From Methylophaga sp. (GTDB taxonomy: Bacteria; Pseudomonadota; Gammaproteobacteria; Nitrosococcales; Methylophagaceae), in contig DRHW01000016.1 in NCBI GenBank assembly GCA_011053005.1, positions 39,851 to 103,850 on the forward strand: DNA of 64,000 nt, written 5' to 3'. The notes below the pieces were generated by a model. It was not told the origin of the DNA. It worked only from the letters and a program-made list of their open reading frames with translations, and searched no databases. Within the stretch, counting starts at the first letter, position 1. The number at the start of each line of letters is the position of its first letter. A program made the position numbers and the translations under genes. Positions 27,919 to 34,069 of this stretch are shown piece by piece.

Positions 27919-28326
27919 AAAAAATAAATAGCATTAGCAATGCTTCTAAAGCGCCTATTTACCTGGCTTAAGCGGTATTGAATATAATTGTTTATTTATA
28001 AATCTATACATTTTCATGCACTTAGCTAGTGCGGAATCGTTTTTTTTGCTCTATTGCAGTGCTTATTAATTTGAATTTTTAACAGGTTTAAGTCTGTAAT
28101 CAGGCTAAGGATTGACCACTTTATAGGCTAAACTGACTAATTTTACTGAGGTTGAATTAGAATTGAGTTCAACTAGTTAAGCGATAGAATAGTGGTACTG
28201 AACTATTTGATTTTGTTATTATCAGCTACTTAGTTTGACGTTCTGTTAAATTAAACATAGTCAAGGGTATGAAAGGTGAAGCGCTTTCTTTGTCTTTGGA
28301 ATATTCTAAACAGAGAAACCATCTTT

Positions 28327-29793
28327 ATGACCATCTTTTTTATCTGTATTGCTATATTGATCCTTGGCTATAAATTTTATAGTCCTTTTGTTGAAAAACA
28401 AGCAGGTATTGACGCGACAACAATCACTCCGCAAGCTCGTTTCAATGACGGTGTCGATTATGTAGAAATTCATCCGGTTCGCGCTTTTCTCATACAGTTT
28501 TTGAATATTGCCGGTGTCGGCCCTATATTTGGCCCTATCTTGGGCGCGTTATATGGTCCTATAGCATTAGTGTGGATTGTACTTGGCAATGTTTTTGGCG
28601 GCGCTGTTCACGATTATTTTTCTGGCGTGATGAGTATTAAAGAAGATGGTAAAAGTCTGCCAGAAATTGCAGGGCATTATTACAACACAGTATTTAAAGG
28701 CTTCATGCTGATCTTTACCGCGATGTTGCTGTTTTTCGTTGGTGTCGTTTTTATCATGAGCCCAGCTGGATTATTAAGTAATTTAGACGCATTCAAAGGC
28801 ACATTTATGGCTAACAATACCTTTTGGGTGTTAGTTATTTTAGCTTATTATTTTTTAGCTACTTTGTTGCCGATCGATAAAATTATTACTAAGTTTTATC
28901 CTATCTTTGGTTTGTTAATGATCGTGATGACGACCATGATCGCCGTTGCATTATTAATAGAAGCTCCACATTTACCAGTAACAGGCGATTTTCTGGCTTA
29001 CTTCAGTGCAGACCATCATGCTCATGATTTATTAACGCCGAACCCTGATGGATTACCAACTTGGCCTTTATTATTTGTGACGATTACCTGTGGTGCAATA
29101 AGCGGTTTTCACTCGACACAAGCACCTATTATCGCGCGAACTTTAACCAATGAAAAATACGTCCGTCCCGTATATTACGGCGCAATGGTATGCGAAGGTA
29201 TCGTGGCCTGCGTTTGGGCGTTAGCTGGTATTGCTGCATTTCCTGAAGGTTATGCAGGATTAAAGGAGTTACTTGATCTCGGTGGTCCTGGATTGGTGGT
29301 CAACCATGTTGCAAACAGTTATTTAGGCGTATTAGGCGGCATTATGGCGATTATCGCGGTGGCAGTTTTTCCTATTACTTCGGGCGATACGGCATTTCGT
29401 TCATTACGCCTCACCATCGTTGATGCGTTCAATATTCCACAAAGTGTACGCAATCGTTTATTACTGGCATTACCTATTTTAACGATTGCATACTTTATGA
29501 CTAAGCTGGATTTTTCACTGATTTGGCGTTATTTCGCCTTCTCAAACATGCTGTTATCGACCAGTGTTTTATGGCTAGCTACTAAATATTTATTCGATCG
29601 TGGTAGTTTTCATTGGATTGTCAGTATTCCTGCTGTTATTACTACAGGTGTCACCATCTCTTATATTATGACGGCATCGATCGGCTTTAATTTGTCTTCA
29701 GATTTTGGACGACCTATTGGTGCGGCGGTCATATTTATTGGTTTGGTTTTACTCATTATTGTCAATAACAAGCATAAGATTTCTGCAGTCTAA
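28327..29793 (+). CDS. Carbon starvation protein CstA family transporter (short form)
   Basis: The ORF track begins at GTG 28276. ATG 28327 (MTIFFICIAILILGYKFYSPFVEKQ) matches the usual CstA N-terminus. Polytopic, with motifs FLNIAGVGPIFGPILGA and SGFHSTQAPIIART. Confidence 0.82.
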   Translation: MTIFFICIAILILGYKFYSPFVEKQAGIDATTITPQARFNDGVDYVEIHPVRAFLIQFLNIAGVGPIFGPILGALYGPIALVWIVLGNVFGGAVHDYFSGVMSIKEDGKSLPEIAGHYYNTVFKGFMLIFTAMLLFFVGVVFIMSPAGLLSNLDAFKGTFMANNTFWVLVILAYYFLATLLPIDKIITKFYPIFGLLMIVMTTMIAVALLIEAPHLPVTGDFLAYFSADHHAHDLLTPNPDGLPTWPLLFVTITCGAISGFHSTQAPIIARTLTNEKYVRPVYYGAMVCEGIVACVWALAGIAAFPEGYAGLKELLDLGGPGLVVNHVANSYLGVLGGIMAIIAVAVFPITSGDTAFRSLRLTIVDAFNIPQSVRNRLLLALPILTIAYFMTKLDFSLIWRYFAFSNMLLSTSVLWLATKYLFDRGSFHWIVSIPAVITTGVTISYIMTASIGFNLSSDFGRPIGAAVIFIGLVLLIIVNNKHKISAV

Positions 29794-29899
29794 TCTTTTG
29801 TTAATTAGTCCGTTAGCATCTAAATATACTGGTTTACAGTAAATGAAATGTTCGAAAAATAAATACTTCAAACTTAAGCGGATATGAACGTTATTTTGA

Positions 29900-29928
29900 T
29901 TGACTGTTTTATTGGCTTAGCTCACAAT
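29900..29928 (+). promoter_or_regulatory. Candidate sigma70 promoter for the small ORF-secDF unit
   Basis: TTGACT-N17-CACAAT. The -10 element ends 25 nt before ATG 29954. Confidence 0.3.
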
Positions 29929-29953
29929 CTGCGAACTTAATTGCGAGCCGTTC

Positions 29954-30349
29954 ATGAAATTTTATCTAACACAGCAGTTTGAACAACGTCATGCCACTAT
30001 CTGGCAGCTGTTTGTATTGTTGTTATTATTTAATAGTCTTGCCTTTACTGGTTGGGTAGACTCTCGCCATTTAAAAACGTCGAGCAATTCAAATGTTGTT
30101 GCTGATTTTAATCACACTACTTTCGCTAATCTTCGTGATAACTATCGCTCATTATTCAATGTTAAAAATCTTAGTGTTCCAAAGAGCAGTGATGGTGATT
30201 CACAACATCACTGGCTAGTTAGTTCTAATGATTTAAGCTTTCCTTTTTCAGCATTAATAAACGCTGAAAACTTCCATTATTTGACGTTATATATTATTGA
30301 TAATATCAAATATCAACTACACCTTACTCGCGCTCCACCACTGAAATAA
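29954..30349 (+). CDS. Hypothetical 131-aa protein; candidate secretion-monitoring ribosome-arrest peptide (C-terminal RAPP motif)
   Basis: I recognise no family. An N-terminal hydrophobic segment IWQLFVLLLLFNSLAFTGWV is present. The C-terminus is ...YQLHLTRAPPLK*, with R-A-P-P encoded at 30329..30340, two codons before the stop. It lies 57 nt upstream of secDF on the same strand. Confidence 0.5.
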   Translation: MKFYLTQQFEQRHATIWQLFVLLLLFNSLAFTGWVDSRHLKTSSNSNVVADFNHTTFANLRDNYRSLFNVKNLSVPKSSDGDSQHHWLVSSNDLSFPFSALINAENFHYLTLYIIDNIKYQLHLTRAPPLK

Positions 30350-30406
30350 TCCCTACCTAATAAGCTTTTATTTGTTTAACAACGAAGTTATCTTCGAGGA
30401 TTATTT
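30344..30406 (+). promoter_or_regulatory. Candidate SD-sequestering long-range stem (small-ORF stop region pairs with secDF RBS)
   Basis: AAATAATCC (30344..30352, spanning stop codon 30347..30349) is a perfect complement of GGATTATTT (30398..30406, the GAGGA SD and spacer just before ATG 30407). A nested local hairpin CGAAG-ttat-CTTCG lies at 30383..30396. Confidence 0.45.
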
Positions 30407-32926
30407 ATGCGTTCATTTTATTCGCGGGCTGTTCTATTCAGCTTGATTATTATCTTCGGGCTGCTGTGTGCATTGCCCAATGTATTACCACATTCAGCTA
30501 GCAAGGATCTGCCTAACTGGTTTACTGGAAATACTTTTTCTTTAGGTCTGGACTTAAGTGGCGGATCTCATTTGCTGATGCAGGTCGATACCGATGACTT
30601 AAATCTCAACGATCACCAGAAATTAGCCGACCAAATCACCGATGGTTTACGTGAGGAACGACTTTTTATTCAGCCAATTTCGGTTACTAAAAATAAGCTT
30701 GTTATCACGCCAAAAGATACCAAACGATTAGCTGATATCAAGAAATTTATTAGCGCTTTTATTGAGGATCCAAAAGGCGGTAGAGCGTTATTTTCAATAG
30801 ATGTTGAAGCCAACCAACTCACTATCACACCAACTAAAATACATAGTGAAAAACTAACGCAAGATGCGGTTGAGCATAGTTTAAAAGTAGTGCGTCAGCG
30901 TCTAAATGAAAGTGGTTTGGTTGATCCCACGATAACTAAACAAGGTGATGACGGCATTCTTATTCAATTGCCTGGAGTAGATGCTCCGAGCTATATACGA
31001 TCTCTACTGGGTACCACAGCAAAAATGACATTTCATTGGGCAGTCAATGATCAATCTTCAGGTGTTATCCGTGCTCAAGGTGTTACGGAAGGTGAAAATT
31101 ATTCTTTAGAAGAACGTGTTGCGCTTGAAGGGGAACATATAAAAGACGCGAATTTAGTCTTTAGTCACGAAAATGGACAGCCTGTTGTTAGTTTTGTACT
31201 CGATAAAGAAGGTGCTAGACGATTTGGCGAAATGACTAAAAAGAATATAGGTCGTCAATTAGCAATTGTACTGGATGATAAAGTCATCACAGCTCCTGTC
31301 ATTCGAAGTGTTATAGATGGCGGTCGTGGAGAAATTAGCGGTTCATTTACAGTTTCAGAAGCTAATGAACTCGCGTTATTACTACGAGCAGGAGCGTTGC
31401 CCGCACCTTTAAATGTAATAGAAGAACGGACTGTTGGCCCAGATTTAGGCAGTGATTCAATTTCAATGGGTATTACTACAGGCGTCATTGGTGCAATCTT
31501 AGTCTTACTCTTTATGTTAACGATTTACGGTAGCTGGGGATTAATTGCCAGTTTAAGTTTAGTGGTTAACATTGGTTTGATTTTTGGCGTATTGAGTCTC
31601 TTAGGTGCAACGCTTACATTGCCAGGTATTGCTGGAATAATTCTAAGTATTGGTATGGCTGTTGATGCCAATATTTTGATCAATGAACGTATTCGGGAAG
31701 AAACTCGACATGGTAAGAGTGCTTTTGCTGCGCTTGATGCAGGATTCAACCGAGCATATAGCACTATTTTGGATTCCAATATCACATCATTGATTGCTAT
31801 TAGTTTGTTATTTATGTTTGGTAGCGGGCCAGTTCGTGGTTTTGCTGTGGCAATGGCGATTGGTTTATTAACGTCGATGTTTACGTCTATTTCATTTACA
31901 CGATTGTTGATGGAATGGCGTGTTAAACATATGCCAAAACAATCTTTGCTTAATATTTCAGGTATTAAAGCTTTAGATCGAATTAGTAATAGCAAAATTG
32001 ACTTTATGCGTGGTCGTTTTATCGGAATTGCTGTATCGGCTATATTGTCATTAGCCTCGATTGGATTATTTTTTCAACCGGGTTTGAACTACGGCATCGA
32101 TTTTAGTGGAGGAAGTATTGTCGAAGTTAAGGCACCGAATACTAACGTCGAACAGGTTCGGAAAACCTTACAGTATAAAGGGCTTGGACAAGCCTCTATT
32201 CAAGAATTTGGTGAAAAAGACACTTATCTTATTCGTCTACCGATAGAAAATGCAGCCCAAGTTGCTAACGGTCAATCCACTCAAAACATTAAACAAGCTG
32301 TTCAATCCTTATCACCCGATGCAAGTTTTCCACGCGTTGAAATGGTGGGACCAAAGGTCAGTGGTGATTTTCATGATGCGACTATCTTAGTGATTGTTTT
32401 TGCTGGATTTGGTATGTTGGCCTATTTATGGGTGCGTTTTGAATATCATTTTGCCTTAGCTGCCACATTAACTATTGCGTTAGATTTGACCAAGACCATA
32501 GGCTTTTTTGTGCTGACAGGCGTCGAATTTAATCTGACGGCTGTGGCTGCTCTGTTAGCTTTAATCGGATATTCAGTTAATGACAAAGTGGTGGTATTTG
32601 ACCGCATTCGTGAAAACTTACGATTAACGCCCGATAAACCTATGTTGCAATTGCTTAATGAAAGTATTACTTCAACATTAACCAGAACCGTATTCACCTC
32701 AACAACGACGTTTTTAGCATTGATTCCAATGGCTGTTGCAGGCGGCAGTGCGGTGGTTAGTTTTGCCTTGCCGATGTTATTTGGCATTGTGATCGGTACC
32801 AGCTCATCAATATTTATTGCGGCACCAATAGTATTTTGGATGGGACAGCATCGCCAGCGTAGAGGTCTTTCACAATTAAGGCCGACAGCGGAAGAGATGA
32901 AAAAGAAGCTAGACGCTATTCTGTAG
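30407..32926 (+). CDS. secDF: Fused protein-export membrane protein SecD/SecF
   Basis: 839 aa. The SecD N-terminus and P1 domain (LGLDLSGGSHLLMQVD, LAIVLDDKVITAPVIRSVIDGG, LLLRAGALPAPL) are followed by six TM helices. The SecF part follows (INYGIDFSGGS, DKVVVFDRIRENL) with six more TM helices. Confidence 0.9.
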   Translation: MRSFYSRAVLFSLIIIFGLLCALPNVLPHSASKDLPNWFTGNTFSLGLDLSGGSHLLMQVDTDDLNLNDHQKLADQITDGLREERLFIQPISVTKNKLVITPKDTKRLADIKKFISAFIEDPKGGRALFSIDVEANQLTITPTKIHSEKLTQDAVEHSLKVVRQRLNESGLVDPTITKQGDDGILIQLPGVDAPSYIRSLLGTTAKMTFHWAVNDQSSGVIRAQGVTEGENYSLEERVALEGEHIKDANLVFSHENGQPVVSFVLDKEGARRFGEMTKKNIGRQLAIVLDDKVITAPVIRSVIDGGRGEISGSFTVSEANELALLLRAGALPAPLNVIEERTVGPDLGSDSISMGITTGVIGAILVLLFMLTIYGSWGLIASLSLVVNIGLIFGVLSLLGATLTLPGIAGIILSIGMAVDANILINERIREETRHGKSAFAALDAGFNRAYSTILDSNITSLIAISLLFMFGSGPVRGFAVAMAIGLLTSMFTSISFTRLLMEWRVKHMPKQSLLNISGIKALDRISNSKIDFMRGRFIGIAVSAILSLASIGLFFQPGLNYGIDFSGGSIVEVKAPNTNVEQVRKTLQYKGLGQASIQEFGEKDTYLIRLPIENAAQVANGQSTQNIKQAVQSLSPDASFPRVEMVGPKVSGDFHDATILVIVFAGFGMLAYLWVRFEYHFALAATLTIALDLTKTIGFFVLTGVEFNLTAVAALLALIGYSVNDKVVVFDRIRENLRLTPDKPMLQLLNESITSTLTRTVFTSTTTFLALIPMAVAGGSAVVSFALPMLFGIVIGTSSSIFIAAPIVFWMGQHRQRRGLSQLRPTAEEMKKKLDAIL

Positions 32927-33013
32927 CATATTTGATAATCATCATAACTAGTTAATAAATAGGGCCTAATGCTGACTTTTTCTACATTAGGCCCTTACCA
33001 ATGGATAAATAAT

Positions 33014-34069
33014 ATGACGTGGATAATGTTAGTTGCAGGATTAACTTTACTGATTGTGGGTGCAGAGCTATTGGTTAAGGGTGCTGCTCGATTAGCAACT
33101 AGTTTTGGTATTCCGGCATTGGTTATAGGTTTAACAGTTGTCGCTTTTGGTACGAGTGCACCTGAATTGGCCGTCAGTATAAAAGCCGCTTTTTCTGGGC
33201 AAGCAGAATTAGCAATAGCAAACGTGGTTGGCAGTAATATTTTTAATATTTTGTTTATCCTTGGGGTGGCAGCTTTAATAATGCCATTAGTCGTATCTAA
33301 GCAACTTATTCGACAAGATGTACCCATCATGATCGGTATTAGCATCCTTGCATTAGTTATGATTCAAGATGGTGTTATCGTCAAATTGGAAGCGTCTATT
33401 TTGTGTATAGGCGTCATTTTGTACACGTTTTTTTTATTTTACCAGGGTAAAAAAATCGGCGCAGAGAGCAGTAATACGACAGTTGAGATAGCAGCACCTG
33501 TCTGGTTAAATATAATTTTTATTGTCACAGGCTTAGCGTTACTTATTCTTGGTTCACGATGGTTAGTGGAGAGTGCGGTTAATATTGCGTCATCATTTGG
33601 GGTGAGTGAAGTGGTCATTGGTTTGACGATTGTTGCGGTGGGTACTTCGTTACCTGAAGTGGTGACATCTATCGTTGCTACGCTTAAAGGTGAGCGAGAT
33701 ATTGCCATTGGCAATGTAGTTGGCAGTAATATATTTAATATCTTGGCGGTATTAGGTATATCAGGATTGTTTTCACCGACGCCTTTGCTGGCAAGTGAGC
33801 AACTGATACACATCGATATTCCCGTAATGGTTGCTGTAGCTCTAATATGTTTACCGTTGTTTTTTATGGGTAGTACATTAAATAGATTTGAAGGTTTTTT
33901 ATTCTTAGTTATTTATATCGGTTACGTATGGTATACCGTGGCGATGGCACTATCACTACATTATTTACCACAATTGCAAATGGGGCTACTTTATGGGCTA
34001 GGGCCTTTAATTGGATTTTACGTGGGGTTATGTTTGTTTAAAGACCTGTTAAAGCGTCGATATTTATAG
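33014..34069 (+). CDS. Ca2+/Na+ (cation) antiporter, CaCA/YrbG family
   Basis: Two alpha-repeats are present: GTSAPELAVSI...GSNIFNILFILG and GTSLPEVVTSI...GSNIFNILAVLG. The ORF track starts at 32969. ATG 33014 (MTWIMLVAGL) fits the family N-terminus better. Confidence 0.85.
   Translation: MTWIMLVAGLTLLIVGAELLVKGAARLATSFGIPALVIGLTVVAFGTSAPELAVSIKAAFSGQAELAIANVVGSNIFNILFILGVAALIMPLVVSKQLIRQDVPIMIGISILALVMIQDGVIVKLEASILCIGVILYTFFLFYQGKKIGAESSNTTVEIAAPVWLNIIFIVTGLALLILGSRWLVESAVNIASSFGVSEVVIGLTIVAVGTSLPEVVTSIVATLKGERDIAIGNVVGSNIFNILAVLGISGLFSPTPLLASEQLIHIDIPVMVAVALICLPLFFMGSTLNRFEGFLFLVIYIGYVWYTVAMALSLHYLPQLQMGLLYGLGPLIGFYVGLCLFKDLLKRRYL

Follow-up and report, generated by a model that had tools for sequence, protein, structure and literature searches.

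The locus examined here raises the question of what a small open reading frame (ORF) without assigned function does directly upstream of a fused secDF gene, on the same strand and 57 nucleotides (nt) away, and whether the mRNA between the two takes part in the control of secDF. It lies in 64,000 nt of DNA from a Methylophaga-like gammaproteobacterium (NCBI GenBank assembly GCA_011053005.1, contig DRHW01000016.1, positions 39,851 to 103,850 of the forward strand), which we call the window; its GC content is 39.5%, and positions are counted from its first letter. An original prediction, made from the sequence, had proposed that the end of the upstream ORF (uORF) pairs with the Shine-Dalgarno (SD) region of secDF and that a ribosome stalled on the uORF undoes this pairing. 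On the evidence given below, we consider it likely that the element in the window is a RAPP-like arrest peptide combined with an SD-unmasking stem that controls secDF. The features concerned are as follows.

29954..30349, + strand: the uORF from the ORF list, 131 amino acids (aa), a candidate Sec-monitoring arrest peptide ending HLTRAPPLK-stop.

29993..30049, + strand: codons of the N-terminal hydrophobic segment (residues 14-32, ATIWQLFVLLLLFNSLAFT), on hydropathy a presumed signal-anchor or transmembrane (TM) targeting signal.

30329..30340, + strand: RAPP arrest-motif codons CGC GCT CCA CCA, from the sequence and the conservation of the motif.

30335..30337 and 30338..30340, + strand: predicted P-site codon (Pro128) and predicted A-site codon (Pro129), placed by published toeprints of RAPP-like peptides (PMC10987492).

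30344..30346 and 30347..30349, + strand: Lys codon and TAA stop codon of the uORF, read from the sequence.

30344..30352, + strand: 5' arm of the SD-masking stem, AAATAATCC, made up of the last sense codon AAA, the UAA stop codon and UCC, the last three being noncoding.

30361..30378, + strand: weak AU-rich hairpin (UAAGC...GUUUA) inside the loop of the stem in the minimum free energy (MFE) structure, probably incidental.

30383..30396, + strand: local hairpin CGAAG-UUAU-CUUCG, nested in the stem loop in the folds and adjoining the 3' arm.

30396..30400, + strand: SD sequence of secDF, GAGGA, found by an anti-SD duplex scan, with a 6-nt spacer to the AUG.

30398..30406, + strand: 3' arm of the SD-masking stem, GGATTATTT (RNA GGAUUAUUU), made up of the SD GGA (30398..30400) and the entire spacer to the AUG.

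30407..32926, + strand: fused secDF, 839 aa, start codon ATG 30407, the putatively regulated gene (Pfam SecD_SecF_C, SecDF_P1_head, SecD_1st, and Sec_GG).

We confirmed from the sequence that 30344..30352 covers the last sense codon and the TAA of the uORF, as originally described, plus three further bases. An inverted-repeat finder returned AAATAATCC and GGATTATTT as a 9-nt pair with 100% complementarity, which bears out the claim that the 5' arm is the exact reverse complement of 30398..30406, the SD GGA with the spacer up to ATG 30407. Folding of 30320..30420 with RNAfold, the check originally proposed, predicted the SD to be paired in the free mRNA: the stem was present in both the MFE and the centroid structure at -16.8 kcal/mol (z = -2.87; 1 of 200 shuffles was as stable), and likewise in those of 30280..30460. 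Its pair probability was 0.94-0.97 in contexts of 101 to 321 nt, so that a 9/9 stem occluding the secDF ribosome-binding site (RBS), as had been claimed, is indeed predicted locally. The hairpin at 30383..30396 also exists as described, but it does not compete with the stem as had been supposed: it has no nucleotides in common with the stem, every fold places it inside the loop of the stem (probability 0.96), and the two form cooperatively. The hairpin adds to the occlusion, since the G at its 3' end (30396) also begins the SD. Besides, we observed a possible extra helix of 4 bp between GCGC at 30330..30333, in the Arg and Ala codons of RAPP, and GCGU at 30409..30412, that is, the G of the AUG and secDF codon 2. 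This helix would bury the start codon and be opened by a stalled ribosome; its probability was 0.87 in the 101-nt context and 0.16-0.31 in larger contexts, and similar pairings were found in L005 and L007 of the orthologous loci.

It might be argued that the complementarity between a stop codon and an SD with its spacer arose by chance in AT-rich DNA and has no structural function; the window is low in GC, 7 of the 9 stem pairs are A-U, and both arm cores are constrained for other reasons. We found such stems to be rare, however. A perfect 9-mer reverse complement lies at most 75 nt upstream of only 0.12% of window positions, and of the 52 ATG starts of long ORFs in the window, one, by assumption that of secDF, has a stem of this kind over -15..-1. 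Dinucleotide shuffles of 30341..30391 yielded such a stem in 0.145% of cases, and in 0.021% if the arm had to adjoin the arrest site. In addition, the noncoding UCC past the stop codon and the AUUA spacer are conserved among relatives whose loop regions cannot be aligned, compensatory changes occur, and other clades reach the same architecture with different sequences, as detailed below. An origin by chance is thus hardly credible to us.

The 3' end of the uORF reads CGC GCT CCA CCA CTG AAA TAA, corresponding to R-A-P-P-L-K-stop. In toeprints of RAPP-like peptides, the third motif residue occupies the P site (PMC10987492), and the original placement of a RAPP stall with P- and A-site codons at 30335..30340 agrees with these data. 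By analogy, we infer that the window peptide stalls the ribosome with its third motif residue in the P site. The four bioinformatic features of Sec/YidC monitoring substrates (PMC10987492) are all found in the window uORF: it is a small ORF without annotated function directly upstream of a sec gene on the same strand; it has an N-terminal secretion signal or TM segment, as judged by a hydropathy scale only (Kyte-Doolittle 19-residue maximum of 1.76 at residues 14-32, preceded by QRH); it carries a C-terminal R/Q/H-A/G-P-P-like motif that is conserved in homologs; and its signal-to-arrest spacer, at 96 residues, is longer than 30. Given the hydrophobic segment and the length of the spacer, Sec/YidC would be expected to release the arrest by engaging the nascent chain. 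Since the uORF and the stem show every sequence-level property of the class, we assign them to the arrest-peptide class.

A hypothetical protein known from a marine sediment metagenome has the same sequence as the uORF product, which matched no Pfam family at E <= 0.01. The product has only three detectable sequence relatives (P0002-P0004), all of which end in RAPP-x-x. One was retrieved by a word-index search (64% identity, TRAPPHQ end), and the other two, both Methylophaga-type uORFs, came from an exhaustive HMMER search of 1.84 billion representatives. The word-index relative lies on a 764-bp contig that stops before the SD; AATAATCC is kept after RAPPHQ, and the stem falls outside the contig.

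A SecDF scan of one genome per species gave 77 loci for comparison. SecDF identity to the window was 82-87% in Methylophaga spp., mostly 60-71% in further Methylophaga, Marinobacter, Halopseudomonas, Idiomarina, Pseudohongiella, Nitrincola, Marinimicrobium, and Cellvibrionaceae, 52% in an Alteromonadaceae metagenome-assembled genome (MAG), and 35-43% in a small number of outliers from the delta- and alphaproteobacteria. In the gammaproteobacteria, a uORF in the same position, ending in RAPP (most), RGPP, or RAAP, precedes secDF at all 67 loci for which the upstream sequence reaches far enough. Counting the window, the motif stands within 12 residues of the C terminus in 68 of 68 motif-bearing loci, and the stop codon follows exactly two codons past the motif in 52 of these (49 of the 64 unique ones). 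The uORFs are typically 125-135 aa long (median, 129; range, 105-168). In most of 65 homologous uORFs, basic residues are followed by a hydrophobic stretch at residues ~15-37, and in most loci 84-99 aa separate it from the arrest residue (median, 90), compared with the 96 aa of the window. Six of the eight outlier loci carry yajC upstream instead of a RAPP uORF. The yajC-like gene (...EIAPKVRVKISRGS...) stands upstream of the fused secDF in the deltaproteobacterial loci L065, L066, L071, L076, L077, and L078 (35-39% identity), so that, within the set of loci retrieved, the arrest cassette is confined to the gammaproteobacterial lineage of SecDF.

Two subsets of these uORFs are described here in their own right. 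In nine of them (L023, L043, L048, L051, L053, L055, L059, L073, and L075) hydrophobicity peaks not at the N terminus but at residues ~60-123, only 19-28 residues ahead of the arrest site, which suggests that some family members have a second hydrophobic segment. In a Methylophaga sub-clade (L008, L009, L010, L011, L030, and L063; SecDF 66-71% identical to that of the window) the uORFs end in ...YFLPEPRAAPQA-stop, with Ala, not Pro, at the third motif position. This RAAP sub-clade keeps the motif, the N-terminal hydrophobic segment, and the SD-masking stem, in which the SD pairs with CCUCAAG at +2..+10, and represents either a new functional motif variant or a decaying switch. The corresponding substitution in the Alteromonas peptide, P127A, did away with arrest (PMC10987492). 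The main text of PMC12992588 does not contain RAAP as a whole word.

On the mRNA, the footprint of a bacterial ribosome extends to about +15/+16. Measured from the first P-site nucleotide, the 5' arm of the window stem lies at +10..+18, and 6 or 7 of its 9 nt fall inside this generally known footprint edge; the anti-SD arm is thus reachable by the footprint of an arrested ribosome, and across orthologs the SD partner falls within -5..+21 in 63 of 64 unique loci. The SD GG pairs with two C's at +17/+18, just past the +16 cut-off, and an accessibility metric based on a 4-nt SD and a +16 footprint was replaced by partner-position mapping and RBS opening energies. We modeled the stall by forcing a footprint of -12..+15 to be single stranded and took -14..+3 as the RBS in the 64 loci. 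A stalled footprint lowered the RBS opening energy by 3.5 kcal/mol on average, compared with drops of 0.25 kcal/mol for a mock stall 30 nt upstream and 0.38 kcal/mol for shuffled spacers (p ~1e-11), and the opening energy in free mRNA was 10.3 kcal/mol across loci versus 7.9 kcal/mol in shuffles. The RBS opening energies calculated for the window were as follows.

Free mRNA: 11.1 kcal/mol.

Stalled ribosome: 7.9 kcal/mol.

Mock stall 30 nt upstream: 11.1 kcal/mol.

Shuffled spacer: 6.2 kcal/mol.

None of 25 shuffles matched the stall-dependent drop of the window, and when only RNA 3' of the ribosome was folded, the opening energy fell from 11.1 to 7.7 kcal/mol. A pairing of the SD with UCC at 30273..30275 in the stalled state was rejected as implausible; it arises when upstream mRNA pairs across the ribosome. 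Of the original proposal that a stalled ribosome shields the left arm and frees the SD, the shielding thus stands for 6-7 of 9 nt, but the SD becomes more accessible (11.1 to 7.7-7.9 kcal/mol) rather than fully free.

These energies bear directly on plain translational coupling, in which a uORF-terminating ribosome at 30347..30349 opens the stem with neither regulated arrest nor export sensing. A terminating footprint relieves the RBS as much as a stalled one does (7.7 versus 7.9 kcal/mol), with similar results across loci, so thermodynamics cannot show that arrest, and not transit, is the regulated step; because of this equal relief, coupling and arrest are separable only kinetically or by mutation. 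Moreover, in the tested homolog from Alteromonas naphthalenivorans, an arrest-defective mutant still expresses above a premature-stop mutant, so transit alone contributes (PMC10987492). In the same homolog, however, loss of arrest by the P127A substitution (RGPP to RGAP), which abolishes arrest, lowered secDF2'-lacZ expression 5.6-fold (PMC10987492). Coupling also leaves unexplained the RAPP/RGPP motif that is invariant in 68 loci, a type of tetrapeptide reported to be strongly avoided in proteomes (PMC12992588), as well as the conserved N-terminal hydrophobic segment with its narrow spacer in most loci and the 27 loci in which arrest codons themselves serve as the anti-SD arm. We therefore think coupling unlikely as the whole account. 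The original prediction had named it as the alternative to arrest; the same relief was indeed found, but coupling is better described as the basal level of the same switch than as an alternative structure.

For the arrest-dependent switch, further evidence comes from the conservation of the stem. In the closest Methylophaga clade, AUAAUCC/GGAUUAU is kept (UAAUCC/GGAUUA where the tail is one codon longer) and the loop diverges; this is weak evidence because stop codon and SD are conserved anyway, GAGGA or GAGG upstream of ATG being conserved in orthologs. We also folded distant loci, each over the stretch between the arrest site and secDF codon 4. The SD zone pairs in most of them with +13..+21, that is, the stop codon and UCC(UC), with the consensus UAAUCCUC : GAGGAUUA, and 31 of the 49 loci of the RAPP-x-x-stop type have the core UAAUCC. 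Over the 64 unique loci, the partner is of the stop-region type, as in the window, in 35, consists of arrest or A-site codons (including CCUCAAG, CCUCG, and GCUCCACC) in 27, and is mixed in one and elsewhere in one, pairing thus falling mainly within -5..+21 of the P site in 63. The conserved complementarity in relatives that the original prediction anticipated is therefore found. The mean pairing mass in this interval was 0.68, versus 0.19 when everything 5' of the SD was shuffled (Wilcoxon p = 4e-12; such p-values overstate the independence of the loci, which are phylogenetically related).

Next to the conservation of position, the pairing itself changes in a compensatory manner. A gapless alignment of all 49 unique RAPP-x-x-stop loci, made with no selection for structure, had 67.5% of cells paired in register, compared with 31-51% when the partner was slid by 1-3 columns, and this figure was equaled by 8 of 500 shuffles; its pair 18-63 is GC in 15 loci, UA in 7, AU in 5, and CG in 1. 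When full-length segments of 18 loci from several orders were aligned with MAFFT, the consensus structure returned by RNAalifold consisted of this stem alone. Among the compensatory variants are UGAUCC:GGAUCA (L062), UAACCC:GGGUUA (L033), and UAACUC:GAGUUA (L026 and L040), and G-U intermediates are present with UAG stops or GGGUUA arms. In an Idiomarina sp. MAG (L016, 2914-2940), one extra nucleotide compared with L015 shifts the UAA out of frame and the ORF continues to RAPPIGVILR-stop, with a UAAUCCUC:GAGGAUUG stem retained at +15..+21; this is either a case in which the RNA element persists apart from its role as a stop codon or an assembly error in the MAG.

The spacing and the SD-abutting hairpin recur as well. 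With the RAPP-x-x-stop spacing, the stop codon occupies +13..+15, counted from the first nucleotide of the P site, where the 3' edge of a stalled ribosome lies. A tail so short and constant after the motif looks selected, and the arrest motif alone does not explain it. A hairpin abutting or overlapping the first SD nucleotide was found in 22 of 64 loci, window counted, with differing stems (CGAAG/CUUCG, CGAC/GUCG, CGAAAAG/CUUUUCG, UGCUUUC/GAAAGCA, and CGCACG/CGUGCG), and it may stack coaxially on the long-range stem. One hairpin motif, UCUUCGAGGAUUAC, is common to Methylophaga, a Pseudohongiellaceae MAG, and Marinobacter.

Several points besides the equal relief by a terminating ribosome weigh against an arrest-controlled stem. 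When the whole 647-nt uORF-secDF 5' region was folded globally, the stem probability fell to 0.27 from its local 0.94-0.97. Removal of the 5' arm freed the SD only partly: the local hairpin persisted, and AGGAU at 30397..30401 paired weakly with GUUCU at 30432..30436, in secDF codons 9-10, which accounts for the residual opening cost in the stalled state. Both core arms are constrained as stop codon and SD, so that much conservation is expected anyway. The original prediction looked to covariation of the arms in orthologs, and both-sided changes do occur at 4 of 7 RNAalifold consensus pairs, but the whole-structure covariation score is modest, being reached by 60 of 500 shuffles. Furthermore, that secDF is a secondary, inducible paralog is assumed only; a tblastn search with SecDF found no second secD or secF within the 64-kb window. 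The case at the window locus is one of computation plus literature on homologs.

Another explanation of the same RNA is transcription attenuation, in which the hairpin at 30383..30396 and AGGAUUAUUU form a weak intrinsic terminator modulated by the long-range stem. A consensus scan does list this hairpin as terminator-like, with 5 pairs, 3 of them G-C, and a U-rich tail. The "tail," however, is the secDF SD and spacer, and a transcript terminated at that point would never become secDF mRNA; in GC-rich relatives the hairpin and the stem are kept but a U tract is lacking (e.g., GAGGAUUACCCAUG), and the conserved stem partner is always the SD. What was found is thus a weak 5-bp candidate whose tail is absent in GC-rich orthologs, and not a G+C-rich hairpin followed by a U tract conserved in relatives. 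We regard termination at this site as very improbable. Besides, a promoter scan did not indicate an internal secDF promoter (5 promoter-like sites versus 3.6 +/- 1.9 expected), and 29000..31500 matched no Rfam family at E <= 1. On either side of the cassette lie a CstA-family carbon-starvation transporter gene (28276..29793, upstream) and a gene for a Na+/Ca2+ exchanger-family protein (32969..34069, downstream), the latter beginning 42 nt past secDF.

Taken as an arrest-controlled stem, the element would work as follows. In free mRNA, the SD would be buried, its first G in the hairpin at 30383..30396 and its GGA, with the spacer, in the 9-bp stem. A ribosome with Arg-Ala-Pro in the P site and Pro-tRNA in the A site (30335..30340) would fail to form the peptide bond and stall. 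Its mRNA channel would cover the message to about +15/+16, that is, 6-7 of 9 nt of the 5' arm; the stem could then not form, and 30S subunits would load on the secDF SD. Active Sec/YidC would engage the N-terminal hydrophobic segment, and the pulling would free the arrest; three further codons would be read, termination would follow, and the stem would re-form. The secDF output would accordingly rise as export capacity falls.

If this is correct, a "hypothetical protein" and an intergenic region in a marine methylotroph-like genome gain a predicted function, namely, feedback control of a SecDF export-motor paralog, sensed via translocation of a sacrificial nascent chain. The 64-locus comparison further shows that nearly all copies of the cassette mask the SD with sequence adjoining the arrest site, even though the uORF and the loop have diverged beyond recognition; this supports the generality of a mechanism tested in one homolog, and the natural compensatory variants (UGA:UCA and C-G swaps) could guide mutagenesis. 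We also put forward, tentatively and as a possibility rather than a probability, that the gammaproteobacterial uORF-secDF cassette contains an undescribed RNA module in which the uORF stop codon at +13..+15 together with UCC(UC) forms the anti-SD strand (UAAUCC:GGAUUA), often stacked on an SD-abutting hairpin, and that this or the arrest-codon variant is under selection in at least three orders. Such a module would provide family-wide comparative evidence for SD unmasking by RAPP arrest, of a kind that the 2021 study did not obtain for ApdA or ApdP, with a very short post-arrest tail tuned so that only a dwelling, and not a transiting, ribosome gives time for 30S loading. As far as we found, the RAPP-x-x-stop spacing, the stop codon in the anti-SD strand, the two strand placements, and the contrast with the lack of predicted SD-sequestering hairpins for ApcA, ApdA, and ApdP in 2021 are not stated in the arrest-peptide papers compared here. 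For specialists in arrest peptides the element holds few surprises; its most rewarding aspects are the RAAP sub-clade and the regularities seen in the comparison.

Among known systems, the founding example is SecM-secA of E. coli, which likewise has a signal peptide, a C-terminal arrest sequence ending in the RAPP-like RAGP, and an SD-sequestering stem that is opened by the stalled ribosome, with release by translocation (PMC10987492). It differs from the window element in its target, secA, and in its longer motif, FxxxxWIxxxxGIRAGP. Pfam includes a SecM family. Homology of the window uORF to SecM, VemP, ApdA, or ApdP was not found by Pfam (E <= 0.01) or the exhaustive HMMER search, and the taxa differ; no direct pairwise comparison was made. 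VemP, which controls secD2/secF2 in Vibrio alginolyticus, is described as an arrest peptide, secreted or targeted to the membrane, that precedes a secondary SecDF; its arrest exposes the RBS by disrupting an mRNA stem and is released by Sec activity (PMC7897499 and PMC11470409). Its target there, secD2-secF2 (PMC11470409), contrasts with the single fused secDF of the window. Unlike the window peptide, VemP has a longer arrest sequence and no RAPP motif, and the two have no sequence similarity. The VemP arrest sequence is reported to be compacted in the exit tunnel (Su et al. 2017).

Closer in motif are ApdA of Actinobacteria and ApdP of Alphaproteobacteria, two RAPP arrest peptides encoded ahead of secDF2 (Sakiyama et al. 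2021, PMC7897499). Like the window peptide, they are small proteins with a signal or TM segment and with RAPP near the C terminus; a secondary secDF follows their genes, and stalling places the third motif residue in the P site, as predicted for the window. Morici et al. 2024 (PMC10951233) describe RAPP stalling as short-circuiting the peptidyl-transferase activity of the ribosome. The Apd peptides belong to other phyla or classes and have no detectable homology to the window peptide; structure prediction in the 2021 paper gave no SD-sequestering hairpins for ApcA, ApdA, and ApdP (PMC7897499), whereas the stem is nearly universal in the window's cassette.

The nearest counterpart comes from the 2024 catalogue of the RAPP-like "RQH family" (Fujiwara et al. 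2024, Nat Commun 15:2711), which spans nine phyla and includes 11 order-level groups upstream of secDF (PMC10987492). The kind of element is therefore already known: RAPP-like uORFs upstream of secDF and one SD-masking stem were published in 2024, and the motif search over 30,000 genomes made then would probably catch the Methylophaga uORFs. The tested member, uDF_RQH_Enterobacterales of Alteromonas naphthalenivorans, has the RGPP motif and 131 aa; its secDF2 SD is partly hidden in a predicted stem-loop, and expression returns when two or three G-C pairs of that stem are broken by the mutations Sm1 and Sm2 (PMC10987492). Both this locus and the window have a uORF of ~130 aa directly upstream of secDF in a marine gammaproteobacterium, with an N-terminal localization signal and R-(A/G)-P-P a few codons before the stop, and both have a predicted SD-masking stem disrupted by a stalled ribosome, the two stems being likened by the published description. 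They differ in that RGPP is followed by three residues in Alteromonas and RAPP by two in the window, in that the uORF sequences have no detectable similarity, and in that induction and stem relief were shown experimentally in Alteromonas, whereas the window is known from sequence and prediction. Thus, the window element is best filed as an uncharacterized member of the class in which a RAPP-like arrest peptide regulates secDF by SD unmasking, and it is predicted to work like the tested Alteromonas member.

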